From an uncultured archaeon (lineage in GTDB: Archaea > Aenigmatarchaeota > Aenigmatarchaeia > QMZP01 > JACQNV01), in NCBI GenBank assembly GCA_964631205.1, contig CAZVWU010000005.1, forward strand, positions 19,711 to 83,710: DNA of 64,000 nucleotides, written 5' to 3'. This document shows positions 12,970 to 43,852 of this stretch, in pieces. Under the pieces are notes generated by a model that saw only the letters and a program-made list of their open reading frames with translations, was not told the DNA's origin and did not search any database. The position numbers and the translations under genes are program-made. How positions within the stretch are numbered: position 1 is the stretch's first letter; every line of letters begins with the position of its first letter.

Positions 12970-13019
12970 AATATTATATTGTTCGACCCGCTTAAAAGAC
13001 AGAAATAGGGCCGCAAAAT

Positions 13020-13031: not shown

Positions 13032-13053
13032 CTGTTGCCATTCTTAAAATAAG

Positions 13054-14165: not shown

Positions 14166-14274
14166 CCCTGCAATCTGGCCTATATCGCTATCGAAGGGTT
14201 GCATGGCGTCACCTAAGATTGGGGAGGCCTGTTGTTGAGTCTGGTTTATTAATTCCTGTTCCAATTATTGTGAT

Positions 14275-14766
14275 ATGATTCTCATCGACACTTCAGTATA
14301 TATAGCCGCTGAAGAAGATGGCTCTATTGAAAAATTGTTAGAGCAGATTTCAGAAAAGATGTTTATACATTCATGTGATGTTATAGAAAAGGAGATTAAT
14401 CTCGCCGCTGATTTTTTAAGAAGGACCGATAGAAAAATTGAATCAGAAAAATTAAAAGCCATCTATGAAAAAATAAAAGAAGGCAACATTAGAACAAGTG
14501 AAAGGATACTAAGGCTGTCTGAAGACTATCATTCTGAAGCTTCACAGCTCTCTAAAAAGGATCATAAAAAGATAAAAGCCGATTTTTTGATAGTGGCCTC
14601 TGCATCTGTAGCTGGGGTAAAAAAAATCCTGTCTTTTAACAGGAAAACAATGGCATCTGAACAGACCATAAAAGTATACAATATAGTAAATACCAGAAAT
14701 AATTGCAAAACACCTGCATTTTTGACAACAAAAGAAGAATTAAGAAAGCTCTTGGAGTCTCTTTAG
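14275..14766 (+). CDS. PIN-domain-like protein (VapC-like). No cognate antitoxin found.
   Basis: N-terminal MILIDTSVYIA and C-terminal DFLIVASASVAGVKKILSFNRKTM match the PIN acidic-residue layout. Longer (163 aa) than classic VapC. Confidence 0.5.
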   Translation: MILIDTSVYIAAEEDGSIEKLLEQISEKMFIHSCDVIEKEINLAADFLRRTDRKIESEKLKAIYEKIKEGNIRTSERILRLSEDYHSEASQLSKKDHKKIKADFLIVASASVAGVKKILSFNRKTMASEQTIKVYNIVNTRNNCKTPAFLTTKEELRKLLESL

Positions 14767-21345: not shown

Positions 21346-21359
21346 ATGTTGGTTTATTC

Positions 21360-23444: not shown

Positions 23445-23484
23445 ATTCCTTGAGCTAGAAAAGAAAGAATTATTTTGCATATTT

Positions 23485-23631: not shown

Positions 23632-24117
23632 CTATTTCTCATAGACAATAAAAACAATATCAATGTCTTGCCCTCTTTTGGAGATTTTCTGGTTCACTTT
23701 ATATATGCCAGTCTTGTTTTCCAGGGCCTTGCTGAGTGGCGTGACAGTGTCTCCATATTTAAAGTAGTAGTCCAACTTCGGATCAAGTGTTTTTTGTATA
23801 TAGACATCAGTCAGCGCATCCGCTATCTCCTCGCACCTTGCATCACCGCATCTCCAGCTCGGGGTTGTCTGCGAGCAATAAAGGACATCGGCCACAGTCT
23901 TGCATTTTTCTATATCCCCTGAATAACCGCTGTCTGTCTTTAGAAGCGCTGTCACCAAGCTGTTTGCATGCAGTTTTATGTAGTCTTCCCCCCTAAAAAT
24001 GTCAGCAGTAGAGATAAGCAAAGCAATAGTGCCTATGCTTACCACAATAACCAGAACCAGAGTTATCAGCATTGTCTGCCCGTTCAGGCCTTTTCTGTTT
24101 GAAATTTCCGTTTTCAT
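23632..24117 (-). CDS. Small pilin-like protein with a class III signal peptide
   Basis: MKTEISNRKGLNGQTMLITLVLVIVVSIGTIALLI. 161 aa. Confidence 0.7.
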   Translation of the reverse strand: MKTEISNRKGLNGQTMLITLVLVIVVSIGTIALLISTADIFRGEDYIKLHANSLVTALLKTDSGYSGDIEKCKTVADVLYCSQTTPSWRCGDARCEEIADALTDVYIQKTLDPKLDYYFKYGDTVTPLSKALENKTGIYKVNQKISKRGQDIDIVFIVYEK

Positions 24118-24135: not shown

Positions 24136-24714
24136 TTAGGTTGGCACCCTGACTGTCATGAGGCCGAGATCGACCCTGTTTTCTATCGATCGGAATATAT
24201 TAACAGGTATTGATAAACCCCTGTTTTTTTTAGACTGTATGCTAAAGCAGATTTCTCTGCAGAATGTCCAGCTATTGCATCCTTTTTCCTGGCCAAAATT
24301 CAGCGGATCGCAATCGTTCTTTTCTTCGCCTAAAATAATTTTGTCAATTGTTACACATGCATCGCCGACAAGTTTTTTTATTTGCTCGCAGCCCTCCTTG
24401 TCATAAGGGCCTGTAAATGTGACTAGCTTTGAATCATCGAATATAAATTCCTCCTTTGTGAGAAAGCTTGCTTTGGCTACAAGGCTCGATGCTAACAGGA
24501 TTTTATGAATGTCCTCCTTGAAACTGGCTCCCTTGGATTTTGTTGACTCAAAACCAATAAAAAAGAAAAGCGCTGCTACAACAACCATCAGTATAAGGAC
24601 GGCCATCAGGAGATGCTCCATTATGCCGAACTGGCCCTTCAATTTTGAGGGAGGGGTGGGAACCGCAGGTTTCCACATGCCGAATTGTCCGCTTATTTTT
24701 TTTAAAAAAACCAT
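24136..24714 (-). CDS. Pilin-like protein with a class III-type signal
   Basis: ...PSKLKGQFGIMEHLLMAVLILMVVVAALFFFIGF. Internal N-terminal duplication KISGQFGMWKP / KLKGQFGIMEH. The start is uncertain. Confidence 0.6.
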   Translation of the reverse strand: MVFLKKISGQFGMWKPAVPTPPSKLKGQFGIMEHLLMAVLILMVVVAALFFFIGFESTKSKGASFKEDIHKILLASSLVAKASFLTKEEFIFDDSKLVTFTGPYDKEGCEQIKKLVGDACVTIDKIILGEEKNDCDPLNFGQEKGCNSWTFCREICFSIQSKKNRGLSIPVNIFRSIENRVDLGLMTVRVPT

Positions 24715-29359: not shown

Positions 29360-29406
29360 TTCTAGTGCAGGTCTTTTTGACCAATTGAACAGGGAAAGAA
29401 GTGCTA
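29360..29406. repeat. Intergenic element copy C
   Basis: TTCTAGTGCAGGTCTTTTTGACC...GGGAAAGAAGTGCTA. The stop codon of 29404..29970 lies in the terminal GTGCTA. Extra AAGTGCAA half-sites lie just upstream (29325-29350). Confidence 0.65.
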
Positions 29407-29970
29407 CTCTATGTTTAAAACAAAGATTTTGCTGCAGTCTTCTGGGAAGGATGTTGCTGTTGCGTTCACACGCTCGCATGTCGCGGAATCCTTGACCAGA
29501 CTGCTTTTGCCTGACTTGAACTCAAACTGGAACTTCCCTATGTCTGTATCTGGGGGAACTTTCATAACTATTGGTATATCTCTGATGTCCCCAGCCCTTA
29601 TCCAAATTGTCTGCACATAATCAAACCATGCTATAGCTTGTGTTAGAGGCCTTTGCCCGACTGCCCTAAAACTAAGTTTATAACAAGCGTCACCGGGCCC
29701 TTTATTGTTTATCAATATTTTAAACTGGTTTTCAGCGTCCCTTTTAGCTGAGGCTTCATCCCCTGTTGTCAGGACACAGCTTTTAGTCGGGTCTTTTTTA
29801 AGTGTGTCTGAGAGGTCTTGTATAGCTTGCTCAGTGACCTGGATCCCTATTGTATTGATATTTTTGAACAGGTTTCGTATAAATCCTGTTCCTAAAGTTA
29901 AAATTAGCACAGCTATCACAATGATTATCACAAATTCAATTCCGATGTTTATGCCTTTTTTTTGAGCCAT
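29404..29970 (-). CDS. Pilin-like protein (class III-type signal)
   Basis: MAQKKGINIGIEFVIIIVIAVLILTLG. The stop codon lies inside intergenic element copy C. Confidence 0.6.
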   Translation of the reverse strand: MAQKKGINIGIEFVIIIVIAVLILTLGTGFIRNLFKNINTIGIQVTEQAIQDLSDTLKKDPTKSCVLTTGDEASAKRDAENQFKILINNKGPGDACYKLSFRAVGQRPLTQAIAWFDYVQTIWIRAGDIRDIPIVMKVPPDTDIGKFQFEFKSGKSSLVKDSATCERVNATATSFPEDCSKIFVLNIE

Positions 29971-30092
29971 ATTATTGGTAACTGTTTTCTTTTGGTTATA
30001 CCTTTTCTTTTGGGAAAAAGAAAGGGTATATGTTTATGCCTTTTTTTTGAGCCATATTATTGGTAACTGTTTTCTTTTGGTTATACCTTTTC
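29945..30092. repeat. Tandem duplication (two ~62-nt copies, 85-nt period) of the 5' end, promoter and first 9 codons of pilin-like gene 29404..29970
   Basis: ATGTTTATGCCTTTTTTTTGAGCCATATTATTGGTAACTGTTTTCTTTTGGTTATACCTTTTC occurs at 29945..30006 and 30030..30092. The second copy would encode a truncated MAQKKGINIYPFFFPKEKV*. Confidence 0.7.
29991..30030 (-). promoter_or_regulatory. Promoter module of pilin-like gene 29404..29970, with the same architecture as 27478..27520
   Basis: Minus strand: TATACCC-(CCTTTTCTTTT...AAAAAGAAAGGG imperfect IR)-GGTATAACCAAAAGAAAAC, about 17 nt before the ATG. Confidence 0.45.
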
Positions 30093-30240
30093 GACTCAGG
30101 CGGACATAGGTCTTTATACAATTACCTAGACCTTTTTCGTCCCTCTAATGGGTAATAATTAGCTCAGGTTGTTTATATATAATTTATTATACGAGATGCC
30201 GAATTATCAAAACTGTGATAAAACACAATGCAGTATAAAA

Positions 30241-33200
30241 TCAACGCCCTTTACCCCTGCCTTTGGCTTTTATTTTTTTCGCTGGTTCTTTTGGTTCCTT
30301 TTTATCTAGTGGAGCTTTTACAGTAATATAATCTTTTAGGTCTGCCAGTTCTGTGCTTACAGGCGCCTCTTTTTCTGCCTTAACATCCACTTTCGGCCTT
30401 CTCGAATAGAAGAAGATTATTATAATGATTATTATTATCCCGAGCATGATGCCTATCTGGGAAGAGTATGCTGTAATTAGGCCTGTCGCTGGAGTTGTTG
30501 GTTGGGTTGTCTGGTTTGCAGTAGGCGCTGGTGTTGGAGGTTGAGGTGACGCCGTTGGGGGTGTTGCCTCTTCAGCAGGCTTTGGTTTTGTTGTTGCGAC
30601 AAATACAGAAAATCCCGGAGTTGTGACGACAAATTCCGCTGAGCCGCCTGTTTTCAAAGCCCATTTTGGATCAGGCAGCTGATTCCATGTTTTATTTGAA
30701 AATCTAAGGAATATTATCTCTGATGGTGGCGAATTTAACATCTCATCTTTTCTCATTGTTATTGTGAAATTTGCTTGTGATATCTTGCCTCTCAGGTTTT
30801 CTGAAGCTATTAGCTGAAACACCTTTAAAGCTTTCTGGCCTGCTCCAGGAAGAGGCTTTAATCCTTGGCCATAATCGTCTGCTATCGGCATCCCTTTCAG
30901 CGCTCTCATCTCTACATAGGCTGCTACTGAACTGACCACTTCATCTGTTTCTAAAATGATTTTGCTTATTCCTGCTTTTTCTGATATTTCCTGGGAGATT
31001 ATCAGCTCTATCGGTGTATATGGCAAGAAATCCCTGGGGTAGGTTAGTAATTGTGAAGCTATGACATTTAATTCAGATGCCGAAATTACATAAGATACGC
31101 CACCGACTCCACCACCGTCTCCACTTCCACCGCCTCCTCCACTAGAGGATCCACCACCAGCTGCAGAGGCTACTGTTATTGTTATTGTAGCTGTTGTGCT
31201 GTTGCTCAAGCCGAAAATATCAATTGCAGTGTAAGTTACAACAAATGTTCCGGTGGAGGTGTAGGTTTTTACTGGGTTTGCGGCTGTGGATGTTGTTCCA
31301 TCGCCAAAGTTCCATAAGTGTGAAATCCTGTCTCCAAGGACGCCAGGTATATTCGGGTCTGTTGCGGCGCTTGTAAATGTTATTTCTTGCCCAATGGTTG
31401 CTGAGTTTGTTGAAACAGTAAATCTTGCAACTGGCGGGAAATTCACCAAAGAAGCCAAGTTGCCTTGCCCGCTTGCAGAGGCATTGTATATAGTCCCATT
31501 TGACAATGCCAGCGTGCCATTAAATATTATATTGTTTGTAATATTTGCGCTATTTACAACTGTGTTCACCAGCGTCGAATTTATAACTGTGCTTCTTGTT
31601 ATTGTAACGTTTGTTAAGATATTTGCCAGGTTAAGGCTGCTATTTGTTATTGTGCAATTTGTCAGCGTGCTGCCGATTGCATTGCTGTCTGCTAAGGAGC
31701 AGAGATTAAGCGTGCTTGCAGCGACTGTCCCATTAATCAGGATCCCGGCTATCAGGAAGGAATTGTTGAGGGATGAATTTGTTAAGGTAGAGTTTGTGAT
31801 TGTTGAACTTGTCACGCTTGAGCTTGCGAGTGTTGAGTTAGTTACTGAGCTGGCTGTGACATTTGAAGACGTGCTCGTGCTGAATGTGACATTTGAGTTT
31901 ATAACTGAGCCGCCGCTGATTGAGCTTCCTGTTATATTGCTTGGGTCAACAACAGTATTAACAAAGGAGCAGGGAGAGGTTGCTGTTGTATCAGATATAT
32001 TGCTGTTCACAATATTGCATCCGTTAAGGACGCTGTTCCTGATAGAACTTAACCTCCCTGTGACGCTATTAAGGGTGCTTGAATTCACAGTTGAGTTTGT
32101 CATCACACTTGAGGCTATGCTGTTTGTGCCAATCAAGGTTGTGAAGTCGAGTATGTTCACGAGATTGTAAACAAGGTCTGTATTGGCCGTTGAGTTTTCG
32201 CCTGTGCATGCAAGGCTAACATTTTTAAAACCAAAAGGAGTTGTTAGCAGACCTATCTGTGCGCTGTGGACTGTTGTGCCTGCTCCCTGAAAACTGTTTG
32301 CCATGGAGTTGAAATCTGTATCTGAGAAAGACCATCTGCATGTATCGGTTACTGATGTGTTAAAGGTTAGAGTGAAGAAGCTTGTTTGTACAGTTGACCT
32401 GTTTGCCGGGTTAAAGCTGCTTTTTACTGAAGGCCCACCGCCCCCTCCCCCTCCACTAGCTGTAACTGCTATCCCTATCGCTGCTGAAGTGGTTGAAGCC
32501 CCCAAATTGTCTGTTGCAACTGTTGTAAGCGAGTATGTGCCTGCTGCCAGATTATTGACTGCCTGTGAGAATGGGGCTGTTGTGTCCTCGCCGAGTTTTG
32601 TTGCGCCCTGGAAGAATTCAACTTTGGCAACTGTCCCATCAGGATCAGTTGCTGTGGCCTCTATTGTGAATGTTGCAGGGGCTGTGAATGTTGCTCCTGC
32701 TGCTGGGTTGGTTATGCTGGCTGTTGGAGGCTGGTTCCTGTTATCAACAGCAAAGCTGTTTGTCGCCACAGCTGTCCCTGCTGTTGTATCAGATGGGGTT
32801 ATCCTTATCCTGACCTGATTATTAACTGCTGATGCCGCAACGCCGTCTGCCACTGAGTTCCAGACAAATGTGTGCGCTATACCTGTAGGCGAAGTTGTCA
32901 GGCCTGTTACGCCATCCCCGCCTGTTCCTCTAGTTGCTGCACTAAAGGTTGCCCCATTGTCTGCTGAGAGCTGGACATTAACTGAAGCTGTGTTGCTTTC
33001 TGGGTCTATTAGGTTATAGCTGATTGTTATGTTGCCTCTCTGGGTTCCTGCAGGCGTGGTTATTGTTGCTGAAGGCGGTGTGTTGGCTTGCGCGCCGCCT
33101 GTTGGTGTTGCTGACACTTCAATTGAGTTGAAGATCGACCCTTCTCCTGCTAGATTAACTGCAGTGACTTTATAGAATACCTTCTGGCCGTTTGCAAGGC

Positions 33201-34362
33201 CTGTGTCCTGGAATGTCAGGACATTTCCAACTGTTGTTACCAGAGCCTTGTTAGTTGAAGTTGTGCCCCTGTATATTTTATAGTTTGTTACCGTGGCTCC
33301 GCCGTTGTTTGCAGGAGCCTGCCATGTGAGTGTTACCTGACCATTACCAGCCTGGACTGCCAGGTTCTGGGGTGCAGATGGGAGCCGGATCAGGACAGGA
33401 ACTGGGAGTGTTGGCAATGTGGCTATTTCGAATGTTACGGTTGAGAAAAATGATTTAGCTGTGATTGTATATCCGCGGCTTAAAAGGTCTATTGTCTGGC
33501 CTTGGTTTATAAATTGGTTTGCAAGCTGGTTGCTATTTGAATCGGTAACAAGCACTTGCACGCCCCCCACTATTCCTGAGGTTAGCTGAAGCTTGTCATT
33601 CCCTGGCAATATAACTAAAGACCCTGGGGGTACTGTAAGCTCGGTTTTTGTTGTTGCGGGTGCAGGTGTTGCCGCTATTTCATTGCTTCTTGCACTTTCA
33701 CCCACAGAGTTTACAGCAGTGATTTCATAGAACACCTGCTGATTATTTGTGACGCCAATGTCTGCGAAAGTAAGGATGTTTCCTATTGTTGCTATCAAAA
33801 GCTTGTTTGCTGAAGCTGTGCCCCTATACACATTATAGTTAATTATTGCTGCTCCGCCATTGTCTGCAGGAGCCTGCCATGTGAGTGTTACCTGACCATT
33901 ACCAGCCTGGACTGCCAGGTTCTGGGGTGCAGATGGGGCTGAGACTTGGCCTGGGACAGAAACTTCAAGGGTTGCTTCTGACACCATGCTTAATCCAGGA
34001 AAGAGCTTAATTGCTGCTACTTTTATTGTCAAGGAGGTGCCGTCTATCAGGTTCACGGTTTTTGTTTCCCCCAAAAATATTATAGCAGGACTAGCTATGA
34101 CACCAGCTGGGCTGGAGACATAATGCAGGTATTGACCATTAAGGTTTCTTATGTCAAGCCATATTTGATTGGTAATTCCATCAATTGTTTGGAGCGATAG
34201 AAGATAATTCCCAAAAGTTGTGGATGTTGACCCGCCGACTGTCACTGTTGTTGGTGCTGACTGGGCAATAGCCATGCCCAAAAGCAAAATCAAAGCTGCA
34301 GAGAAATAGGCGGTCGCTCGCTTGGTATTCTTAAAATCTCTGCGCATTCTCCTTTCTTCCAT
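30241..34362 (-). CDS. Giant surface protein with tandem FN3, Ig-like, Asn/Ser/Thr-rich beta-helix-like and PKD domains, plus a C-terminal 'PGF'-containing anchor module
   Basis: Signal peptide. Two near-identical FN3 units (PSAPQNLAVQAGNGQVTLTWQAPA...). PKD motif WNFGDGT. Many N-x-S/T sequons. C-terminal TTPGFSVFVATT, a Thr/Pro linker, TM IMLGIIIIIIIIFFY and RRPK. Confidence 0.85.
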   Translation of the reverse strand: MEERRMRRDFKNTKRATAYFSAALILLLGMAIAQSAPTTVTVGGSTSTTFGNYLLSLQTIDGITNQIWLDIRNLNGQYLHYVSSPAGVIASPAIIFLGETKTVNLIDGTSLTIKVAAIKLFPGLSMVSEATLEVSVPGQVSAPSAPQNLAVQAGNGQVTLTWQAPADNGGAAIINYNVYRGTASANKLLIATIGNILTFADIGVTNNQQVFYEITAVNSVGESARSNEIAATPAPATTKTELTVPPGSLVILPGNDKLQLTSGIVGGVQVLVTDSNSNQLANQFINQGQTIDLLSRGYTITAKSFFSTVTFEIATLPTLPVPVLIRLPSAPQNLAVQAGNGQVTLTWQAPANNGGATVTNYKIYRGTTSTNKALVTTVGNVLTFQDTGLANGQKVFYKVTAVNLAGEGSIFNSIEVSATPTGGAQANTPPSATITTPAGTQRGNITISYNLIDPESNTASVNVQLSADNGATFSAATRGTGGDGVTGLTTSPTGIAHTFVWNSVADGVAASAVNNQVRIRITPSDTTAGTAVATNSFAVDNRNQPPTASITNPAAGATFTAPATFTIEATATDPDGTVAKVEFFQGATKLGEDTTAPFSQAVNNLAAGTYSLTTVATDNLGASTTSAAIGIAVTASGGGGGGGPSVKSSFNPANRSTVQTSFFTLTFNTSVTDTCRWSFSDTDFNSMANSFQGAGTTVHSAQIGLLTTPFGFKNVSLACTGENSTANTDLVYNLVNILDFTTLIGTNSIASSVMTNSTVNSSTLNSVTGRLSSIRNSVLNGCNIVNSNISDTTATSPCSFVNTVVDPSNITGSSISGGSVINSNVTFSTSTSSNVTASSVTNSTLASSSVTSSTITNSTLTNSSLNNSFLIAGILINGTVAASTLNLCSLADSNAIGSTLTNCTITNSSLNLANILTNVTITRSTVINSTLVNTVVNSANITNNIIFNGTLALSNGTIYNASASGQGNLASLVNFPPVARFTVSTNSATIGQEITFTSAATDPNIPGVLGDRISHLWNFGDGTTSTAANPVKTYTSTGTFVVTYTAIDIFGLSNSTTATITITVASAAGGGSSSGGGGGSGDGGGVGGVSYVISASELNVIASQLLTYPRDFLPYTPIELIISQEISEKAGISKIILETDEVVSSVAAYVEMRALKGMPIADDYGQGLKPLPGAGQKALKVFQLIASENLRGKISQANFTITMRKDEMLNSPPSEIIFLRFSNKTWNQLPDPKWALKTGGSAEFVVTTPGFSVFVATTKPKPAEEATPPTASPQPPTPAPTANQTTQPTTPATGLITAYSSQIGIMLGIIIIIIIIFFYSRRPKVDVKAEKEAPVSTELADLKDYITVKAPLDKKEPKEPAKKIKAKGRGKGR
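33090..33936 (-). repeat. Two near-identical FN3-domain coding repeats inside the 1373-aa gene (about 33090..33381 and 33650..33936)
   Basis: At least 72 nt identical (coding PSAPQNLAVQAGNGQVTLTWQAPA). The flanks are diverged. Confidence 0.75.
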
Positions 34363-34477
34363 AAAAAGTCTATTGGCTCTCCCACTCCGAATTTAATAAT
34401 AGTTATAAGTTTTATAAACTGATTGGTAAGCAGGGCAAGTTTTATAAAGCTATCCTGCTTTTCGGTATTTTGGTTTT

Positions 34478-34535
34478 TTCTAGTGCAGGGCACCTTTTTA
34501 CGAAAAAGTTGCACCAAAAATGGAAAGAAGTGCTA
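34478..34535. repeat. Intergenic element copy D
   Basis: TTCTAGTGCAGGGCACCTTTTTACGAAAAAG...GGAAAGAAGTGCTA. Central CTTTTT-ACG-AAAAAG hairpin. The stop of the hef helicase gene lies in the terminal GTGCTA. Confidence 0.7.
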
Positions 34536-36197
34536 TTTCGAAGGAATTTGTGGATTTAGGCTTTTCTGCTGCATCCCATAAAGGATCCATTTCATCTTTT
34601 TCTCTTTGTTTAGAGATGACCAGTGGTAAGCCTCGTCCCTTGTGCCTTTTGTTATCAGGACAATGATTTTGCCGATTTTGGACCTGCCAACACGGCCTCT
34701 CCTCTGTATGCTTCTTATTTCGGATGGCGCAGGTTCGTAAAAGATCGCGATGTCGGCATCAGCCACATGCAGGCCTTCCTCCCCGATTGAAGTGCAGACT
34801 AATACATTGTAAACCCCTGACTTAAAATCCTCGAGCCGCTGGATCTGCTCTTTTTGGGTGAGGCCTTTTTTTACTTCTTGGATTGGTTTATCCTGAGGTT
34901 GCATATCTACTGCTTTTTGAAAATCAGTATTTAGTTTTTTATTTTCTTCTTTTTGATTAACGTTTTTCTTGAAACGGTTATTTACTTGCTTATTTTCAGA
35001 TCCCCTTTTCCCTTGGCCGATAAATTCGACAGGCCTTGAGCCCTCTATTTTTCCCAATGCCGATGCTATGTGGCTTACAGTGTCCCTGTATGTGGCGAAG
35101 ACTATTATTTTTGAGCCCTTTCTCTGGTTTACCTCTGCAGATACTATACTGCAGAGCTTGCTCATTTTTGGGTGCTTGTAGCCTTCCTCGAAAAGGCTGT
35201 TTGTCAGCCACATTGCATTTGAAATTGTTTTGTCTTTTACAAGGGCTATCGAATACCTTGATTTGTCTTCCCTTACTTTTTTCCAATAGTTTTCTAAAAT
35301 GGGGATTCCCTGGGTCTCTAGAAGGCCGATCGCATGCTCTATTTTTATTGCAGGCAGGGCAAGTGAGAGCCCTATGAAGGCGTCCCTGTTCCCTGCTTTT
35401 ATTTTTGCCATCAGGTTGCTTTGCAGAAGAAGCAGGTCTTTTTTTGTTGGATTTTTTCTTTTTAAAAGCCACATTTTCCTGAGGGTTTCTATCCTTTGGT
35501 AATAGGCAGACTTTAGAAGAGTCCTTATTCTGTCAAAATTTTCTGGAAGCTCAACACTGACCCATCCTATTTCCTTTTCGTTTATGTAGGGCTTGACATC
35601 CTCATCTTCTTCTGTCCGTATCTCGATTGCATCAAGGCCTGTATTTTTGCAGATTTCTTCTATCTTCCCTTTATCTGCGCCGGGGGAAGCTGTTAACCCC
35701 AGTATTTTTGGGTTTTTTGCTTGCGCCAGATAGGTTTTTGCAATAAATGGATAGGCATAATCGCCAATTGCATGGTGGACTTCATCCAAAACCAGCAGGC
35801 TGAATTCCTTCAAGTTGAGCCTGTTTTCCTCAAGATCATTTTTAATTGTTTGCGGGGTTGCGAAGACCAGTTTTTTGTTTTTGTAGATTTCTTCCCTTTT
35901 CTCTGGGCTTATTACTCCTGTTATAACTACAAAAAGGGTCTCGTCAATATTTAGGAAATTTAAAAAAGATTTATAATGCTGGTTTACAAGGGGCCTTGTA
36001 GGCGCCATTATTAATATTTTGGAGCTCTGGTTTTCATTCAGCCTGTGGGCTGCTAATAAGGCCGCTATGGGCGTTTTACCTAAACCAGTTGGAAGCACGC
36101 ACAGAATATTTTTATTCAAGGCAGAAGCTAAAACCGATTGCTGATAGGCTCTTGATTCGATTGAGTCTGGCTTGATTAAGGGATGCGAGACGTACAT
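34533..36197 (-). CDS. hef: Hef/FANCM-type DEAH-box helicase (helicase part only)
   Basis: Q-motif/Walker A (LPTGLGKT), DEVHH, and C-terminal LVCTSIGEEGLHV...FYEPAPSEIRSIQRRGRVGR, typical of archaeal Hef helicase. A K/N/Q-rich low-complexity insert lies between motifs IV and V. No nuclease domain is present. Confidence 0.85.
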   Translation of the reverse strand: MYVSHPLIKPDSIESRAYQQSVLASALNKNILCVLPTGLGKTPIAALLAAHRLNENQSSKILIMAPTRPLVNQHYKSFLNFLNIDETLFVVITGVISPEKREEIYKNKKLVFATPQTIKNDLEENRLNLKEFSLLVLDEVHHAIGDYAYPFIAKTYLAQAKNPKILGLTASPGADKGKIEEICKNTGLDAIEIRTEEDEDVKPYINEKEIGWVSVELPENFDRIRTLLKSAYYQRIETLRKMWLLKRKNPTKKDLLLLQSNLMAKIKAGNRDAFIGLSLALPAIKIEHAIGLLETQGIPILENYWKKVREDKSRYSIALVKDKTISNAMWLTNSLFEEGYKHPKMSKLCSIVSAEVNQRKGSKIIVFATYRDTVSHIASALGKIEGSRPVEFIGQGKRGSENKQVNNRFKKNVNQKEENKKLNTDFQKAVDMQPQDKPIQEVKKGLTQKEQIQRLEDFKSGVYNVLVCTSIGEEGLHVADADIAIFYEPAPSEIRSIQRRGRVGRSKIGKIIVLITKGTRDEAYHWSSLNKEKKMKWILYGMQQKSLNPQIPSK

Positions 36198-36287
36198 ATC
36201 GCTTAAGAATTAGCATATAGGAGTTTAAATTAAAAGTAGGAAATTAAAAACAAATTTTGGGGGTTCGGCCCTTTCCTAAAGGGCTGA

Positions 36288-36324
36288 TTCTAGTGCAGGT
36301 TTTTGCCGTGGCAAAAAAGTGCTA
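36288..36324. repeat. Intergenic element copy E
   Basis: TTCTAGTGCAGGTTTTTGCC-GTG-GCAAAAAAGTGCTA. The stop of 36322..38313 lies in the terminal GTGCTA. Preceded by hairpin GCCCTTT-CCT-AAAGGGC at 36268..36284. Confidence 0.7.
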
Positions 36325-38313
36325 GTGTTTCCTTTTGATCAAAACAAATACAACTATTACCACAATAACTATCACTGCGATTATTCCAAGCAATAGTGTG
36401 TTTGAACCTGCTGCTGGAGTTGTTGGGGCTGTTGTTGCTGCTGGAGTTGTTGTGCCTGCCGGGGCTCCTGTGGTTGGTGGAGTTGTTGTTGTCTGTGGTT
36501 GTTCGGCTGCTGCTACTGCCTCTTTCTTTGTCACAACAAATATTGAGAATCCTGGGGTTGTAGCCTTGAATTTGCCTCCGCCAAGGGATTGTGTTGAGAG
36601 TTCATTCCATTTCCCGTCTGCAAACCTTGCTAGCACAACATCTGCGGCTTTCAAGTTGTTTGTTGAGAGCTCTGCATCTGTGAGGCTAAATTCTATTGTT
36701 GCCTGCTTTACTGCAGCAGAAAGGACTGTTGAAGGCGTGACCTGGATGACTTTCACTATAGGCTGTGCTGCTGATGGCAAGGCTGTCAATGCTTGGCCTT
36801 TGTCGTCTGAAATTGGTATTTTATCAAGAGCTCTGATCTCCACTGTCGCATCGGCTACTGAGACATCTTTTGTGACTTCAACCTGTATCTTTTCGACAGA
36901 AGATTTTGATGCTACATCTGCTGGGACAGCCAGTTCAACAGGGGCTGCTGTAGTCAAAGGTGCTGTGACTGTGAGGGTTGTTGAGGCCAGGACTGTGGAG
37001 GTTGATGAAGGCGTTGACTGTGAAGTGGATGAAGTGCCTCCAGTGCTGCTAGTCAATTCGGCATATTTGATTTTGAATGTGGCTGTTTTTGTTACAGAAT
37101 TGCCTGCCCTGTCTGTTTTTGTGAATGTCGCTTTGTATTCGCCTACATCTGATGTGTCTGTGAAGTCATTCCCGCAGTTGTGGGTTACTTTGGTTCCTGT
37201 TGGCTTCTCTATTGAGATTGACTGGTCAGCTGAATCAAGGCCTGATGTGACGTCTGATGATGAGCATGTAAGGTCATCTTTGGATATGGTATTGCCTTTA
37301 TTGGTATCGGTGCTTGGCACTGTTAGGGTTGCTGAAGGGGATGTTGCGTCGTTTGTGATTGTGTATGTTGAGGCGTTCGCCACCTGGTTATTCGAGACAT
37401 CTGTGGCAAATACTGTGAAGTTGTGGATACCATCAGGCATACCTCCAAGAGAGAGTGTTGCAGTGGAGCTTGAGCCTCCGCTCGCTATTGTCATGCTTGC
37501 GTTGGATATTGTCTTGTTGTTGCCGAACCCTATGGAGAGGTTTACAGAGACTGGGTTTGTCTCGTTGAAATCGACTTTAAAGTCATTTGTTGTGTTGGTT
37601 GTGTTGGTGTTGTTGGCCCTTGTGCCGCCTGTATACCTTACAGCATTAGGCGCGATTGTGTCGTTTACATAGAAAGTGACATTTGTCTGGTTTATAACGC
37701 CGCTCCCGCCGCCATCATCTATCAATGTGACTGTCATGTTCAATGAGTTGTTTGTAGGTATTGTCCTGCCGCCTGGAACCTTTAACCTCACAGCTATGTA
37801 TATTGTGCCTGAAGTGTTAACAAGTGGAGGTACGCCCCATGCGCCTGCTGAAGAATTGACTCTTGTTGTATTGAACCATGTAAGGTTGACTAGCTGGCCG
37901 ACTGTTACATTAGTGAAGCCTATTCCGTTAAATGAACCTGCTGTGCCTTGTGCTGATGCGCTTGCATTTTTCAGAGTCTCTGATGAGAAATTACCTAGGA
38001 ATTCAAAACCCGGAGGCAGTGTTATGTTTATCTGTGTGATATTCCTGACATTGCTTGCCACATCAGTGCCTAAAACTTTTATAGAGAGGTTTAAAGTTAC
38101 GTTGTCGCCGCCGGATTCGAGGAATGTGACGTTTCTCCCTGAATCAGCAATGGTAAAAGTCTGGAACCCCGTTGTGTTTATGCCTGAAACAACGAACTGG
38201 TTGCCTTCTTTGGCAGCGCTGATATAATTGACAAAAAGAGATAGGCTTACTAATAGTACTAATGCAGAGAGTAAAATCAAAACAGGTTTTGTGGCTCCTT
38301 TTAAATTATTCAT
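36322..38313 (-). CDS. Heavily N-glycosylation-sequon-rich surface protein (S-layer/glycocalyx candidate) with the 'PGF' anchor module
   Basis: Signal peptide and dozens of N-x-T/S sites. The C-terminal domain is homologous to the C-terminus of 30241..34362 (ARFADGKWNEL...TTPGFSIFVVT), followed by a T/P linker, TM LLLGIIAVIVIVVIVVFVLI and KRKH. Confidence 0.8.
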   Translation of the reverse strand: MNNLKGATKPVLILLSALVLLVSLSLFVNYISAAKEGNQFVVSGINTTGFQTFTIADSGRNVTFLESGGDNVTLNLSIKVLGTDVASNVRNITQINITLPPGFEFLGNFSSETLKNASASAQGTAGSFNGIGFTNVTVGQLVNLTWFNTTRVNSSAGAWGVPPLVNTSGTIYIAVRLKVPGGRTIPTNNSLNMTVTLIDDGGGSGVINQTNVTFYVNDTIAPNAVRYTGGTRANNTNTTNTTNDFKVDFNETNPVSVNLSIGFGNNKTISNASMTIASGGSSSTATLSLGGMPDGIHNFTVFATDVSNNQVANASTYTITNDATSPSATLTVPSTDTNKGNTISKDDLTCSSSDVTSGLDSADQSISIEKPTGTKVTHNCGNDFTDTSDVGEYKATFTKTDRAGNSVTKTATFKIKYAELTSSTGGTSSTSQSTPSSTSTVLASTTLTVTAPLTTAAPVELAVPADVASKSSVEKIQVEVTKDVSVADATVEIRALDKIPISDDKGQALTALPSAAQPIVKVIQVTPSTVLSAAVKQATIEFSLTDAELSTNNLKAADVVLARFADGKWNELSTQSLGGGKFKATTPGFSIFVVTKKEAVAAAEQPQTTTTPPTTGAPAGTTTPAATTAPTTPAAGSNTLLLGIIAVIVIVVIVVFVLIKRKH

Positions 38314-38532: not shown

Positions 38533-38571
38533 TTCTAGTGCAGGTCTTTTGCAAGAGCAAAAGAAGTGCTA
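38533..38571. repeat. Intergenic element copy F
   Basis: TTCTAGTGCAGGTCTTTTGC-AAGA-GCAAAAGAAGTGCTA. The stop of 38535..40841 lies in the left-end TTCTAG. Confidence 0.75.
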
Positions 38572-40841
38572 TTATTTAGTAATATATAAGGTTCTAAGAA
38601 ATTGTAGGCTAATTCCCCTTCTTTCTGGCGGACACTGATAATGATCCTATCGCCCACTTCCAGGCTTCTATATAGCTGGTTGCCGTTAAAGAATTTTATT
38701 TGAATTTCGCTTTCTGCTGTTTCAGCGTCATCTGCCAGTGTTATAAGCTTGTTTTGGCATTCACACTCATCCACATTGCCTGCACACTCCAAGCAGGCAT
38801 CCTTTGATTTTATTGTGCCTTGCAAGGAAACAGATTTGCAGGAATATTCTTCTGTTGATCCTAAATACTCGCCCACTGTTAAGGTTTTGCTGGTTTTTTC
38901 AGGCATTCTTTTCGACAGCCTTTCAATTTCAGCCAGGCCAAGCGGCCTGTCATATACGCTTACTTCATCCACAAGCCCGCCAAAGTAATCCTTGTTTAGG
39001 CTGCTCCAGGAGCTTCCGCCTATGACGATGTAAGAGCCGTTCAGGTCTGGCTGGAGCTCTGAGTCAAGCTCCGCCTTCAACTGAGCGTTTAAATAAATGC
39101 TCGTTTTCTGGAATTCCAGAACTGCTGCAAGATGAGACCATCCTCCAGAAATATTTTCATATTCCCCAGCCGCAAACTGGTAAAACGCTTCCAGAGTCGT
39201 ATTCTGGCCTGTGTAATTTGAACTCTGGTAGGATCTTATGCCAATCCCGGTTCTATTGGCAAAAATAAGGGATTGTGGTGGTCCTGAACCTCCCTTTGGA
39301 CCGAGCAGCTGCAGGATAGTCTGTTGGCTTATATTTTTAGGCAGATTAAACCATAGGTCAACAGAAAACTGGTTCTGGTCAGGCAGCAAAAGGGGGACAT
39401 CTATATAACTGGAATTAAAGCCGGCTGCCATCCCGAACTGGCCAAGGATTTTTTTAATTTGCGGCGCCTCCTGGGTGTCATTGGTTATGGAATCTGTGAG
39501 TATTCCGTCTTCTTCGCTGAAAGAAAAAAGGTGTATCCTTTCCTTTATGTCATATACCTTTGTAAGGTCATCAGCCTTTTCATGCTGCTTAAATATTGCC
39601 ATCAGGTCTTCCTTGGACAGCCTGCCTTTGTAGATTTGGATGTCGTCTATAAGGCCGTTGAATGTGGTGGATGGGGGCATCCCGCCTATAAAAAGACCGT
39701 TCTCCCCTGAAATCTTTATCGGGCCTTTAAACTCTTTTTCGTCCTCCAGGCTTCCGTTAATATAAAGCCTGGCCTTTTCGCCGTCCCAGACAGCCGCAAC
39801 AAATAACCAGCTATTGAGGGGGGTCTCATTTTTTGAAAAAATTTCAACTCTGGCTCCATCCCCTTCAGCAGCAAATTGCAGCCTTGGAATTTTTTCATCT
39901 TTTACTAAAAGCAAGCTGTAGGCTGCCTTAAATGGTTGAAGCTGATCCTGCTCGTGGGGTTTTGCGATTATTGTTTGGGGTCCGCTCCCTTCTGCGGAAA
40001 CAAGATATATCCATCCTAGCAGCGCAAGGCCGTCGTTTATGTCTGCAGCGAAATTTTGGTTGTCATCAACTTTTACAAAATCCCCAACACCATCAAAAAA
40101 AAGTGCCTGATTCTCCACTCCTTTCATGAGCCTTTTTTCTGCTTCACAGCTGGGATAGGGATCGCTCTCGAGGTTCCCAAGGACTCCATTATTTTGATTT
40201 CCAGAAACGTCATTTATTTGGATGCCATCCAAATCCTCTTCATCGAATGCAAGCCTTAATGTCAGCATGGGTTTGGTTTCCTTTTCTACCTCAGGCCTCG
40301 AAAAGGTTGAAACATCTATAGAAAGCTTCAAAACAGCTTCACTATCGTAGATCTCTATAAGCTTCCCGTTGGGAAAATAAGGCAGCTGCAGAGTCAGGTA
40401 TGTCTCTTCCAGCTCGCCGGCGCCAAAATCAAATGCAAAAAGCCCGAGCTCAAACCTAGAGATATCCAGGACTTCCCCGTCTTCAGAAATAGTTTTTGCT
40501 GTGTAAGCGACTTCTGGGTCTAGGAATTTTTCCAGGCCCTTATTGGGCGCAGAGCCCTCGATGATCCTTGTTCCCTGCTCAACCAGTTCCCCGCTGTTGT
40601 AATAAAGCCCAATAGAATATAATAAAATTTCGTCCTCATATGATTTGGATGGCTCGGACAGCTCGGCTGGCTCAGCAGAAAACCCGCCTTCCGGGATTAT
40701 TTGGTGGCCTGTAATTTGAAGGTTATAAAGGATTAAGGCTAGCAATATTGAAACAATTGACAAGCCCGCTATCATTGCTAGTTTTTTGGATTCCATACAT
40801 ATGGCACTCTTTGCTAAACTTGGATGAAACAGATTTTCCAA
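38535..40841 (-). CDS. Membrane-anchored protein with LamG-like (concanavalin A-like lectin) domains
   Basis: N-terminal TM. LamG_3-type motifs GLIDDIQIYKGRLSKEDL and GLVDEVSVYDRPLGLAEIERL. An alternative start at MESKK (40796) is possible. Confidence 0.75.
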   Translation of the reverse strand: MENLFHPSLAKSAICMESKKLAMIAGLSIVSILLALILYNLQITGHQIIPEGGFSAEPAELSEPSKSYEDEILLYSIGLYYNSGELVEQGTRIIEGSAPNKGLEKFLDPEVAYTAKTISEDGEVLDISRFELGLFAFDFGAGELEETYLTLQLPYFPNGKLIEIYDSEAVLKLSIDVSTFSRPEVEKETKPMLTLRLAFDEEDLDGIQINDVSGNQNNGVLGNLESDPYPSCEAEKRLMKGVENQALFFDGVGDFVKVDDNQNFAADINDGLALLGWIYLVSAEGSGPQTIIAKPHEQDQLQPFKAAYSLLLVKDEKIPRLQFAAEGDGARVEIFSKNETPLNSWLFVAAVWDGEKARLYINGSLEDEKEFKGPIKISGENGLFIGGMPPSTTFNGLIDDIQIYKGRLSKEDLMAIFKQHEKADDLTKVYDIKERIHLFSFSEEDGILTDSITNDTQEAPQIKKILGQFGMAAGFNSSYIDVPLLLPDQNQFSVDLWFNLPKNISQQTILQLLGPKGGSGPPQSLIFANRTGIGIRSYQSSNYTGQNTTLEAFYQFAAGEYENISGGWSHLAAVLEFQKTSIYLNAQLKAELDSELQPDLNGSYIVIGGSSWSSLNKDYFGGLVDEVSVYDRPLGLAEIERLSKRMPEKTSKTLTVGEYLGSTEEYSCKSVSLQGTIKSKDACLECAGNVDECECQNKLITLADDAETAESEIQIKFFNGNQLYRSLEVGDRIIISVRQKEGELAYNFLEPYILLNNSTSFALAKDLH

Positions 40842-40867: not shown

Positions 40868-43852
40868 TTATTTGTACCTGGATAATAAACTTAGCATATA
40901 TTTCATGCTTACTGGGCCAAAGGTTATTGGCTCAGCTTCTACAGACCGCATCACTGAAATTTCTGTAGGCCTGATATTATCGTCTGTAAAGCTGCATCCC
41001 CTGTAAAACCCCACAACCCCTTTATCGAACTGGACTTTGATATTCCCGCTTGGATCCTTTGATATGAGGCTGCTTTCTATATAATTCTCGCTGCCCCAGA
41101 GGGCGACTGCCTCTTCTGCGTTCTTGGCGCAGTTTGGCCTTGCTGGTTTTTTCCCGCCTCCCTGTTCAGTATACTCGTCTGCCAACCTAAAGATTACATG
41201 GCCAAGCTCATGCAAAAGCCTTGAGACAATCCTGTCCTTCGAATAGGTCTCTGATATAAAAACGAGGTTTCCCACGCTAAATGACCTAAAAGGGATTTGG
41301 GAAACAACTATTGCATAGTCTGCATTAGGGCACTGTTGGGAAATGGCTTTGTTTGCAGACTGTATATTATTTACTATATTGCCTATATCTGCAGGGTTTA
41401 CCAGCATATTCCCTTGGGAAGGGACGATCCATAAATTGAATTTCTCTTTGTTGGATTTGAAAGGCTCTACGCCGAATATGCCTTGCTTTTCAGTGTCATC
41501 ATAAGATGCCCAGCCCATTATTTTCTCTTTAAACCCTGCACCATCTATGTTTCCATCATAAAGGAATGCTATATCCAGTTTGCTGCCTAGTGAGCCGCTG
41601 TCTATTATCTTTTTGCAGGAGGGTATCTTTATGCACAGGGCTGCATCGGGCTTGCACTTCTCCCCTTGCTGGCAGTCATTGTCTGCACGGCACCTTCTCG
41701 CAGCAATATTGGAACCGGAATATATTTTAAGCTCATCAAAGAATATTTTTCCCCCATCAAAGCCCTGCAGGACTGGATACAATGCAGTTGGAGGGATGGC
41801 TGTTTCTTTGCCTTTCAGCTCCCCATTAATAAAGAAAGAGGCTTCCAGCTCTTCGCCTGCTGTTTTGGCAAGGATAATTTGGATCTGCATCCACTCGTCA
41901 ACAGGCATATTGGAGGAATAAATTTCATGATCCCTGTCCCGTCCTTTCACTACAATCCCTATGCCTTTTTTCCCGAGAATTAGCGCGATAAACTGGTTTC
42001 CATTATCTGGACTATCAGACATATTAAAAATATAATTTTCCCCTTTCTCGAATTTAGGGTTCTCAGATATTTTCAGGGAAAATGTTGCTGCAAATTCTGG
42101 CCCTGTTATGTCTAGCTCTTTGCCTCGTACATAACTTCCTGTGCTGTCGAGCAGGATGGCATGTTTGCTTACACCTGCTGCCCACTTGGCCTGATTCATC
42201 TGGCCTGAGTTCCCAAAATCTGAAAGGTCAGAGATCACATCTCCGCGCCCCTCATCCATCCTCCAATCCAATACAACCTCTGCTGGATTTTTTGCAGAAG
42301 AATAAAGCGATTTTATTTCAGCTTCAGCCAAAGCTGTGTTGTAGATTTGGATGTCATCTATAAGGCCGTTGAAAAATCCATAGGAACCGCCGCCAACCAC
42401 AATGTCAAGCTTTTCGGATAAAAAGATTGGCTGCTCTTCTGAAATTTTGGCTTCACCATTGAGATAAAGTGACGAAAGGGATTCTTCATCTGTCCTTTTT
42501 GAGACAAAAACTATGTGCGCCCATCCTTTATTGGGGTTGACATAGAAAGGCTTGTTTTTGTACACAAAACCTATGCCTGAACGGTCAATAATCATCCTTA
42601 AATCGTCGGCTGAGCGCAGAGACATGATTTCTTGGGTCGCCGAAGGGAGATCCTTCGGTATCCTTATCCAAAACGCCAGGCTGATATCGTCCCCAGCCAC
42701 ATCTAACGGTTTGTCCAACACTATAAGGTCGTCTATGCCGTCAAAGGCTAGGCCTCCCCTTCCATCCCTTCCAGCAACCTTGAAAACCTGCGAGCTGTTG
42801 ATCCCTTTTAGAGTCCCTTCATTTTTCTCTATGTCTGCAGATGAGTCTTTTATTGCAGAATCCTGGAGGCTGTCAAATCTCCATTCAAGGACCGTCCTTG
42901 GGCCTACAGATATGCAGCCCACTTTCTCGTAAATCTTTTTGTTTTCTTCCTGCGGTTCTTTCAAAACATTTTCAATATCCAGCTCAATGTCTATGCAGTA
43001 TTCGCCTGAAGAGGAAAAGAACAGGCCTTCGCCTGATATTTTTTCAGCAATTACTTCTCCCGGCTTAAGGTTAGAAGGATTTAAATAGAACTGCTTTTCT
43101 GTCACTTGGATGCCATCTTTTTTTATAACAAGATTGTTTGCTATCTGGCCGGAAAATGGATTGCCAGAATTTTTCACAAAGATTTTTATTTGGAACTGCT
43201 GGCCAGTATAAGCAGAAAAAAGTTTTGCACCATCTTGGCTGGCAAAATATGCATCCTCCAGGACGATATTGGATCCCTGTTGCGGTGTTGGGGGTTCTTC
43301 CTGATATTCGCAGCCATCCCCTCTCCAAACGCCCCCGGCAATTTCACATTCTTCTTTTGCATTGCAGGCCTTAAGGTTTGAAAAGCTGCAGCTTTCCTTT
43401 ACTGCCTTCACAAGGCATGGGGCTATATCTTGATGGAAGCATGCAGTGACGCTGGCGTCATTGGAAACAGTGTCGGTGAGACCTTGGGTGCAGAAAAGGC
43501 CGCCTGAGTTTTTACAGGATTCTTTTGTCCAGCAACCTTCCAAATGGTCTGCGGAACACTTTACCAGCTCCTCATCAAAAGGCATGCAGACCTGCGTTTT
43601 TGTGAGATACCCTGCCCTTTCGTCAGCAATTTCGACCGATTTTCCTTTGAATTTTATTTCGCATGTTGTCCTGTTGATTGTGGAAAATTGCTTTTTTGTT
43701 GAGGCGTAAAGTTTCTTTGTTTCTGATGCAGGGGCGGATGACAGGAAGTAGACAGAAAGAACACCTATGATTATAACCAAGACTAGGATAGGGACCAATA
43801 TTTTTATTGCAGCCATTAAAACACCTGCTATGAATAGTTTGTTTTCCGACAA
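40868..43852 (-). CDS. Giant membrane-anchored protein with a Cys-rich region, LamG-like domain(s) and a C-terminal zincin metallopeptidase domain (M64/IgA-peptidase-like)
   Basis: N-terminal TM ILVPILVLVIIIGVLSVYFL. LamG motif FNGLIDDIQIYNTALAEAEIKSL. HELGHVIFRLADEYTE has an HExxH motif followed by an (L)ADEY motif. Confidence 0.75.
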   Translation of the reverse strand: MSENKLFIAGVLMAAIKILVPILVLVIIIGVLSVYFLSSAPASETKKLYASTKKQFSTINRTTCEIKFKGKSVEIADERAGYLTKTQVCMPFDEELVKCSADHLEGCWTKESCKNSGGLFCTQGLTDTVSNDASVTACFHQDIAPCLVKAVKESCSFSNLKACNAKEECEIAGGVWRGDGCEYQEEPPTPQQGSNIVLEDAYFASQDGAKLFSAYTGQQFQIKIFVKNSGNPFSGQIANNLVIKKDGIQVTEKQFYLNPSNLKPGEVIAEKISGEGLFFSSSGEYCIDIELDIENVLKEPQEENKKIYEKVGCISVGPRTVLEWRFDSLQDSAIKDSSADIEKNEGTLKGINSSQVFKVAGRDGRGGLAFDGIDDLIVLDKPLDVAGDDISLAFWIRIPKDLPSATQEIMSLRSADDLRMIIDRSGIGFVYKNKPFYVNPNKGWAHIVFVSKRTDEESLSSLYLNGEAKISEEQPIFLSEKLDIVVGGGSYGFFNGLIDDIQIYNTALAEAEIKSLYSSAKNPAEVVLDWRMDEGRGDVISDLSDFGNSGQMNQAKWAAGVSKHAILLDSTGSYVRGKELDITGPEFAATFSLKISENPKFEKGENYIFNMSDSPDNGNQFIALILGKKGIGIVVKGRDRDHEIYSSNMPVDEWMQIQIILAKTAGEELEASFFINGELKGKETAIPPTALYPVLQGFDGGKIFFDELKIYSGSNIAARRCRADNDCQQGEKCKPDAALCIKIPSCKKIIDSGSLGSKLDIAFLYDGNIDGAGFKEKIMGWASYDDTEKQGIFGVEPFKSNKEKFNLWIVPSQGNMLVNPADIGNIVNNIQSANKAISQQCPNADYAIVVSQIPFRSFSVGNLVFISETYSKDRIVSRLLHELGHVIFRLADEYTEQGGGKKPARPNCAKNAEEAVALWGSENYIESSLISKDPSGNIKVQFDKGVVGFYRGCSFTDDNIRPTEISVMRSVEAEPITFGPVSMKYMLSLLSRYK

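Follow-up and report, generated by a model that had tools for sequence, protein, structure and literature searches.

Domains of the ZU5, GPS and Nup98-C type cut their own chain in the turn that precedes the last β-strand. SEA and SEAL domains, known from mucins and bacterial anti-sigma factors, undergo juxtamembrane autoproteolysis beside an O-glycosylated Ser/Thr/Pro region: they cleave at a β-turn (G|SVVV) with no catalytic His, and the fragments stay associated until they are pulled apart. Here, we describe two genes, A and B, on a 64-kb stretch of contig CAZVWU010000005.1 from an uncultured archaeon (the window, meaning the whole stretch analysed). Their products are surface proteins that share a C-terminal domain with a conserved T-P-G-F-S turn, and we compare this domain with the self-cleaving domains and with the PGF-CTERM sorting signals of archaea. 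ZU5, GPS and Nup98-C were unified as one cis-autoproteolytic superfamily by Zhang et al.

A preprint of May 2026 by Brogan and Rudner described MAIN, a group of GAIN-B-like domains in bacteria and archaea (bioRxiv 10.64898/2026.05.12.724683). For bacterial MAIN domains, self-cleavage at HF|S was established by Edman degradation and S-to-A mutants, and the fragments remain associated. The proteins are built from a signal peptide, adhesion or enzymatic domains, MAIN and an anchor, and a force-dependent release of the ectodomain was proposed. The archaeal list of the same preprint includes Methanoculleus, Methanolobus, Methanococcoides, Methanoregula, Methanosarcina, Methanomassiliicoccus and Bathyarchaeota, and its structure-based table gives ZU5/GAIN-B as the last domain of these archaeal proteins, one of them with a transmembrane (TM) helix after it.

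Regarding sorting, the signals of archaeosortase A (ArtA) are tripartite, the motif standing directly before the hydrophobic segment, and it is in a subset of the Euryarchaeota that archaeosortases have been found (PMC6098224). The domain family closest to A and B is PGF-pre-PGF (TIGR04213, InterPro IPR026453), which, like the domain of A and B, is archaeal, sits on large surface proteins and has T-P-G-F-S close to the C-terminal end of the domain.

The shared domain and its family

The domain shared by A and B is very probably TIGR04213, with a GAIN-B/ZU5-like fold, and the two proteins are new members of an already curated domain family. Their features, all on the minus strand, are as follows:

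30241..34362 (-): gene A, a type-I membrane-anchored surface protein of 1373 amino acids (aa) with two FN3-like domains, Big_7, N/S/T-rich repeats, PKD and PGF-pre-PGF
34261..34362 (-): A, predicted signal peptide, aa 1-34 (...AALILLLGMAIA|QS), from inspection of the translation
30586..31080 (-): A, PGF-pre-PGF/GAIN-B-like domain, aa 1095-1259, from homology to B, the family hidden Markov model (HMM), the AlphaFold2 (AF2) model and Foldseek
30607..30621 (-): A, T-P-G-F-S turn, aa 1248-1252, with the putative scissile bond F1251|S1252, from the AF2 model
30457..30585 (-): A, P/T-rich linker, aa 1260-1302 (30% S/T, 26% P)
30406..30456 (-): A, TM helix, aa 1303-1319 (IGIMLGIIIIIIIIFFY), from hydropathy and the translation
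30244..30405 (-): A, Lys-rich cytoplasmic tail of 54 aa, from the translation (SRRPK, then 49 residues)
36322..38313 (-): gene B, a type-I membrane-anchored surface glycoprotein of 663 aa
38215..38313 (-): B, predicted signal peptide, aa 1-33 (MNNLKGATKPVLILLSALVLLVSLSLFVNYISA|A), with an n-h-c layout, from inspection of the translation
36523..37008 (-): B, PGF-pre-PGF/GAIN-B-like domain, aa 436-597, from TIGR04213, the AF2 model and Foldseek
36544..36558 (-): B, T-P-G-F-S turn, aa 586-590, with the putative scissile bond F589|S590, from the AF2 model and family conservation
36397..36522 (-): B, T/P/A-rich linker, aa 598-639 (35% S/T, 16% P; pLDDT 55-64)
36337..36396 (-): B, TM helix, aa 640-659, from the AF2 model (helix 207-227) and hydropathy
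36325..36336 (-): B, cytoplasmic tail KRKH, from the translation (C-terminus ...FVLIKRKH)

BLASTP of A against B returned a single significant high-scoring segment pair, between the C-termini (A 1100-1268, B 441-606; 35% identity, E=1e-26). The initial annotation had described reading frames of 1373 and 663 aa that are homologous only at this end, and this was confirmed. It was also right that a homologous domain is shared, with a length of about 165 aa rather than the ~100 aa it proposed. The motif TTPGFS[VI]FV lies at A 1247-1256 and B 585-594, and the T/P-rich spacer, hydrophobic helix and basic residues that the annotation placed after the domain occur in both proteins. The PGF itself (B 587-589, A 1249-1251) is found about 50 residues upstream of the start of the TM helix in both, close to the 35-45 first estimated, and the helix is directly preceded by ...AAGSNT in B and ...AYSSQ in A. 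This shared C-terminal layout is real and far beyond chance.

Family membership was assessed with profiles. B scored 52.7 bits against NCBIfam TIGR04213 'PGF-pre-PGF', for which the curated cut-off is 28. A scored 18.4 bits, under that cut-off, and its membership is based on the homology to B and on 93.4 bits against a family HMM built from 148 sequences; the top match of the family profile is a protein near-identical to A (P0017). No Pfam model covers the domain. Run on the six-frame translation of the window, the family HMM found exactly two copies (139.8 bits and the 93.4 bits of A), and a regular expression for the PGF motif retrieved the same two copies only.

Counting the domain with an HMM, as the annotation had proposed for the genome, gave many more copies in sequence databases. 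An exhaustive HMMER search of 1.84 billion cluster representatives, with a profile from four close sequences, recovered 969 clusters at 50% identity with E<=1e-3 (at least 969 in Archaea). Word-indexed searches were of little use: the domain query gave 2 matches and a 40-sequence profile 6, swamped by the low-complexity tail. All 89 relatives scanned individually matched TIGR04213 (best E=7.7e-105). With each species represented by one genome (GTDB representatives, to which the source genome of the window does not belong), 35 loci with the domain were found, among them loci of Methanomicrobiales, Methanoculleus, Methanosarcinales, Halorussus, Halobellus, Hadarchaeota, Thermoplasmatales, and Woese-, Nano-, Aenigmat- and Micrarchaeota; some methanogens have dozens of paralogues. 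Thus, with loci across Halobacteria, methanogens, Hadarchaeota, Thermoplasmatales and DPANN, the module is neither new nor lineage-specific.

Upstream of the domain, Pfam identified Big_7 (546-613), PKD (974-1064) and FN3-like matches in A, and weak Ig-like matches in B, whose exact protein also occurs in public assemblies. From its composition B would be expected to have 12.2 +/- 3.0 N-x-S/T sequons, yet it has 27 (4.1 per 100 aa), none of them inside the PGF-pre-PGF domain. Sequons are not enriched in A (28 against 24.7 +/- 4.1 expected). The centre of A (aa ~740-960, window 31500..32200) is an Asn/Ser/Thr-rich degenerate repeat (…NS[TS]xxNS…) with faint pentapeptide-repeat matches, and its sequence suggests that it may form a β-helix or β-solenoid stalk. 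On the strand antisense to this repeat there are long shadow open reading frames (ORFs) that resemble multi-TM proteins.

Predicted fold and the conserved turn

Both domains were modelled with high confidence. The AF2 model of B 436-663 had a mean predicted local distance difference test score (pLDDT) of 88.4: above 90 through the domain, and 55-64 in the linker, which lacked secondary structure. For A 1095-1265 the pLDDT was 95.4 and the predicted template modelling score (pTM) 0.89. Each model is a compact β-sandwich of the GAIN-B/ZU5 type. In both of them P-G-F-S forms the tight turn that joins the last two β-strands (B: P152-S155 between strands E146-151 and E156-161; A: P155-S158 between E148-154 and E159-164); it is a structural element in a buried context, and not an exposed membrane-adjacent tag.

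Foldseek against the PDB ranked the GAIN domain of BAI3 (4dlo) first for both models (B E=8e-5, A E=4e-4; probability 1.0, query TM-score (TMq) 0.40-0.47, the value for A being 0.47). Other top matches were the GAIN domains of CD97 (9mqr and 8ikj), BAI2 (8oek) and CELSR1 (8vy2), and, on the ZU5/FIIND side, the NLRP1 FIIND (7crw) and ankyrin ZU5 domains (6m3q, 3ud1 and 3ud2); the AnkB ZU5 match to A had a probability of 0.98. Over both models, probabilities of the top matches were 0.97-1.0. SEA domains were not among the PDB matches of either model, and the fold also differs: SEA is an α/β sandwich, whereas A and B are all-β and of ZU5/GAIN-B type.

Over 148 family domains the T-P-G-F-S turn is the most conserved segment: T 88%, P 92%, G 97% (143/148), F 98% (145/148) and S in 147 of 148. 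Elsewhere, the F after the Ser reaches 99%, a W and an L are invariant, one Thr is at 95%, and one position is Arg in 143 sequences and His in 5. The family consensus at the turn, [YF]xAxTPGFSxF[AV][IV], parallels the sequence around the GAIN cleavage site: G-F|S-x-F-[AV]-[IV] appears to correspond to H-L|T-x-F-A-V-L. Solved GAIN chains bear out the comparison: the sequence of ADGRL3 is ...CSCNHL-TNFAVLMAH, and in cleaved latrophilin (4dlq) chain A ends with ...CACSHL. In one family member (P0153) the turn is TPHFS.

The resemblance to GAIN domains, as found in adhesion G protein-coupled receptors (GPCRs) and polycystin-1, has four elements: the PDB matches, a juxtamembrane site, a putative scissile bond between a hydrophobic residue (Phe) and a Ser nucleophile in the turn before the last strand, and an [ST]-x-F-A-[VI] strand after this bond. 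A and B differ in lacking the GAIN-A helical subdomain, the GPS cysteines (both window domains contain 0 Cys) and the -2 His, and in showing no detectable sequence-profile similarity to GAIN. Moreover, GAIN directly precedes a seven-TM receptor, whereas a linker of ~43 aa separates the archaeal domain from its one TM helix. With MAIN (prototype B. subtilis YfkN), A and B have in common the GAIN-B/ZU5-like sandwich, its place as the last folded domain before the anchor, the F-S in the turn, and the overall order of signal peptide, adhesion domains, domain and surface anchor. The bacterial prototypes have H-F-S with sortase/LPXTG or SLH anchors, whereas A and B have G-F-S with a T/P stalk and a TM helix. 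The taxa of the archaeal entries in the preprint coincide with those richest in PGF-pre-PGF. The link of this family to GAIN-like domains is very recent and, on the archaeal side, is suggested by fold and motif.

From these models we lean towards A and B being membrane-anchored adhesins with a GAIN-like breakaway joint above a stalk, at which cleavage and shedding would take place. Both are predicted to be Sec-exported, type-I surface (glyco)proteins with variable FN3, Big, PKD or Ig-like domains after the signal peptide. Their PGF-pre-PGF domain is juxtamembrane, and a disordered T/P-rich stalk of ~43 aa separates it from a stop-transfer TM helix with a positive-inside tail. This helix would be the permanent anchor, with T-P-G-F-S at the GPS-equivalent position instead of being a sortase motif. 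The F|S bond would self-cleave by an N-to-O acyl shift on the conserved Ser; the ectodomain would stay non-covalently clamped on the last strand (S-x-F-[AV]-[IV]), itself tethered via the stalk, until it is shed under force. The stalk would put the joint roughly at the height of the surface layer (S-layer), since a comparable Pro-rich spacer of ~50 aa bridges membrane and S-layer in the M. hungatei S-layer protein (PMC11641113). Because both window domains lack His, a His-independent chemistry would be needed: strain, as in SEA, or the conserved Arg (B R563, A R1220) and Thr (B T574, A T1231). For autoproteolysis of the domain itself, the balance is to us somewhat on the negative side. A tentative extension, which we hold to be rather doubtful, is that the whole PGF-pre-PGF family is a His-independent, self-cleaving GAIN-like module cut at G-F|S by strain and/or Arg/Thr.

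Several observations weigh against self-cleavage of a GAIN-like domain. The fold similarity is moderate (TM-score 0.40-0.47, root mean square deviation 6-7.6 A, with no residue-level superposition). At the profile level, Pfam ZU5 (PF00791) and GPS (PF01825) gave no match to A or B at E<=1 and were outside the top 25 Pfam families over the 89 relatives, and both profiles returned nothing relevant from PDB sequences. At the putative site, Gly replaces the His of the canonical HX(S/T) (Gly at -2 in 143/148). Neither that motif nor a remote His, as in NLRP1, is present: both window domains contain 0 His, 68 of the 148 family domains have none, and there is no conserved His column. The Ser is never Thr in the 148 sequences, though the two are interchangeable in GAIN and MAIN. 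Finally, all cleavage experiments of the preprint concern bacterial HFS domains; it never mentions PGF-pre-PGF, and its archaeal entries are only putative TIGR04213 members (bioRxiv 10.64898/2026.05.12.724683).

Two further matches were considered. That of streptococcal R28 in the PDB was weak (E=0.0075) and confined to the N-terminal half. One relative matched NF006937 (YfkN-family), a possible bridge to MAIN, and this was rejected as evidence because a phosphoesterase domain, probably present in that relative, would account for the match.

The absent His and the exclusive use of Ser also fit a non-catalytic GAIN-B/ZU5-like module: a rigid membrane-proximal pedestal, or a contact for the S-layer or for oligomers, atop a glycosylated stalk. 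T-P-G-F-S would then be kept as a Pro-Gly β-turn with the Phe packed in the core. Pro-Gly is a classic turn former, the core W, L and F are conserved as strongly as the turn, and many eukaryotic GAIN domains are uncleaved. BAI3, the top match of both models, is itself a GAIN domain without that His and is reported to have been crystallised uncleaved, so that the domain of A and B could likewise be structural and not cleave. However, the turn is the most conserved segment, and a Ser in 147 of 148 sequences is seldom seen in a surface turn that is purely structural; the S-x-F-A-[IV] strand mirrors the GAIN tethered strand; the -2 His does occur in the TPHFS member; SEA domains cleave without a catalytic His; and bacterial MAIN domains, called homologous, do cleave. 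We regard a purely structural role as a possibility to be taken seriously, without favouring it.

The extreme conservation of T-T-P-G-F-S in an exposed hairpin, together with the absence of the canonical catalytic base, could also mean that a trans-acting surface protease (sheddase) recognises or cleaves this turn, or that O-glycosylation or another modification takes place there. We find this improbable: neither the window nor the syntenic locus of the closest genome (L002, described below) has a conserved protease or transferase gene beside the domain, and the fold falls specifically within the ZU5/GAIN-B group, which is autoproteolytic.

Anchors and the sorting-signal idea

Architecture was surveyed in the 150 best family representatives, and the column statistics above come from the 148 family domains. 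In 133 of the 150, no more than 160 aa separate the domain end from a TM helix, which bears out the initial annotation in treating this as a recurrent, conserved C-terminal module. Between domain and TM helix lies a T/A/P/E/S-rich linker with a median length of 43 aa (10th-90th percentile 32-74), and in 104 of the 133 the helix is followed by at least three K/R. A PGF tens of residues before the TM helix is therefore the rule across the family. A second PGF beside the helix was found in only 1/150 representatives. The domain also occurs internally (P0025, P0026, P0030 and P0094), in tandem (16 proteins) or with no TM helix at all, and internal copies retain PGFS.

The name of TIGR04213 presumably implies a PGF-CTERM downstream of the domain. 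In contrast to the name, A, B and 88 of the 89 sampled relatives have a plain TM helix and a basic tail with no second PGF, and none is found in A or B. Among the relatives examined, a genuine PGF-CTERM downstream of the domain was seen only in P0137 and in a Halobellus locus (L019). The anchor varies by lineage while the domain is constant. It is a plain TM helix with K/R in the window and in DPANN-type metagenome-assembled genomes (MAGs). In Methanomicrobiales (L004-L006) a conserved post-domain anchor reads 'APLVYAPLLAPLAFLLWARRKH' or 'SAPLVYAPLLAPLAFLLWARRKH', in Hadarchaeota (L013, L020 and L024) 'VIWRYISxG' or 'VIWRYIS[IL]G', and in P0051, P0068 and P0071 'IRRWWIRRQNPALFRKYD'. Some of these lineage-specific motifs may, to judge from their sequences, be unrecognised sorting or retention signals. 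Since the anchor changes with lineage and window proteins share the tail in the absence of PGF, domain and anchor are separable modules.

The latter proteins are three further window surface proteins with a hydrophobic helix and a basic/acidic tail (2898..4841 (+), 4845..6251 (-) and 11611..13041 (-)), in which neither the PGF motif nor the PGF-pre-PGF domain was found. Anchoring by a TM helix and basic tail is therefore general in this organism, a generic feature rather than a companion of PGF.

The initial annotation had proposed that TTPGFS, linker, TM helix and basic tail may be a lineage-specific variant of the PGF-CTERM-type signal, possibly for an archaeosortase or a rhomboid-like protease. 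In this model, cleavage by such an enzyme or by a rhombosortase-like one would possibly be followed by lipid attachment. The likeness behind this reading is the literal P-G-F, the C-terminal helix with basic residues, and a Thr-rich linker as in haloarchaeal S-layer glycoproteins. Moreover, the haloarchaeal relatives mentioned above carry a genuine PGF-CTERM after the domain, hence the 'pre-PGF' name. The annotation was also correct that the PGF of A and B is not a canonical PGF-CTERM: TIGR04126 (PGF-CTERM) gave no match to A or B at E<=1 and was matched by 1/89 relatives, and the PGF does not stand directly N-terminal to the hydrophobic helix in either protein. A helix with a C-terminal basic cluster is present in B; in A the tail runs 49 residues past SRRPK.

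However, the variant signal does not fit the rest of the data. The PGF is within a folded domain, at pLDDT above 95 and ~50 aa from the TM helix, in a curated family (TIGR04213) that extends from Halobacteria to DPANN. PGFS is equally kept in internal and tandem copies and in TM-less proteins, and other window surface proteins have the tail and no PGF. No polytopic archaeosortase-like ORF was found in the 64-kb window or in ~2 kb of extra contig. Archaeosortases have been found in a subset of Euryarchaeota, and the domain is common in DPANN-type MAGs, so that the family is found in lineages with no known ArtA. ANME-1-m has the pre-PGF domain and lacks archaeosortase A, and M. acetivorans has 24 pre-PGF domains against 2 PGF-CTERM domains (PMC5244752 Table 2). 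The sorting-signal interpretation is largely refuted, and we consider such a signal in A and B very improbable. The 'processing' part of that proposal fails as a separate sortase signal and may survive as autoproteolysis, with F-S at the GAIN/ZU5/MAIN cleavage position.

One more PGF-like string was noted, a 'TTPGFY' in a cupredoxin/CopC-like protein at 45877..46707 (+) ('FTFTTPGFYPYH'). It was discarded as a chance resemblance because the protein has no PGF-pre-PGF domain match.

Genomic surroundings and biological meaning

The gene content of the window is archaeal: Rpp14, RadB, Taw1, a Hef helicase and many class-III signal peptides; tRNA and rRNA genes were not found in it. The DNA stems from a metagenome of groundwater in Ohio (SRR8863434, PRJNA512237). 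The closest genome is the MAG ERP125453_co1_55 (Hef 68% identity, pilin-like gene 72%). It encodes a 1301-aa pre-PGF orthologue with two domain copies and a C-terminal layout of the A/B type, followed by Hef and the pilin-like gene. Comparing its locus (L002 6725..10630 and 12382..14668) with window 29404..38313, there is no gene A between Hef and the pilin-like gene, and its absence there indicates that gene A is a lineage-specific insertion or loss.

Directly upstream of B, 38535..40841 and 40868..43852 (-) encode large Laminin_G_3 (concanavalin-like lectin) proteins with N-terminal TM or signal anchors, one of them with weak CARDB and M64 peptidase matches. Together with A and B, this pair makes up a surface-protein island. 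Class-III (type IV pilin-like) signal peptides of the form 'RKGLKGQ[TA]E...' occur at 8840..11548, 21360..23480, 23632..24117, 24136..24714 and 29404..29970 (all on the minus strand), and a 1760-aa protein (16090..21372 (-)) adjoins this cluster. Pfam gave no match for the cluster proteins or for the 1760-aa neighbour; the cluster may represent a locus for a pilus or for adhesion.

In Euryarchaeota, helicase and nuclease are usually fused in one Hef protein. Here, the Hef-type helicase (34533..36197 (-); DEAD/ResIII/Helicase_C) and an ERCC4/XPF-type nuclease with HhH (1597..2343 (-)) are separate genes ~32 kb apart. Two paralogous ORFs of ~325 aa (13054..14043 (+) and 15119..16087 (+)) surround a small ORF (14275..14766 (+)); they have near-identical N-termini (M[ND]FI..YL.G..DGIY...LLAFSLV...) and C-termini P[DN]QPANPK. 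For adenylosuccinate synthetase (PurA, 320..1543 (-)), the nearest two sequences are metagenomic (75% and 56%), followed by Bacteria at ~40% identity. Its nearest named relatives are bacterial, which makes it a poor taxonomic marker here, and either a bacterial-type PurA or very sparse sampling of the lineage is suggested.

For the annotation of archaeal surface proteins, a PGF 40-50 residues before the TM helix is the hallmark of a folded TIGR04213 domain, and such a PGF is unsuitable for predicting ArtA substrates or lipid anchoring. The models also connect this large archaeal family, whose function is uncharacterised, with the self-cleaving fold of GAIN-B and ZU5. GAIN-like self-cleavage in bacteria was experimentally validated only in the 2026 preprint (bioRxiv 10.64898/2026.05.12.724683). 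The archaeal G-F-S, with its missing His, bears on the shedding of GAIN-like adhesins and on whether such chemistry runs in the absence of histidine.

If the self-cleaving joint is real, the membrane would retain, carried by a glycosylated stalk, a tethered 'Stachel-like' strand (S-x-F-A-[IV]), and archaeal adhesins would be releasable by force. For A-like proteins, with a cytoplasmic tail of 54 aa, shedding might even be sensed inside the cell. This would be an archaeal counterpart to the mechanosensing of adhesion GPCRs, with a new catalytic solution.

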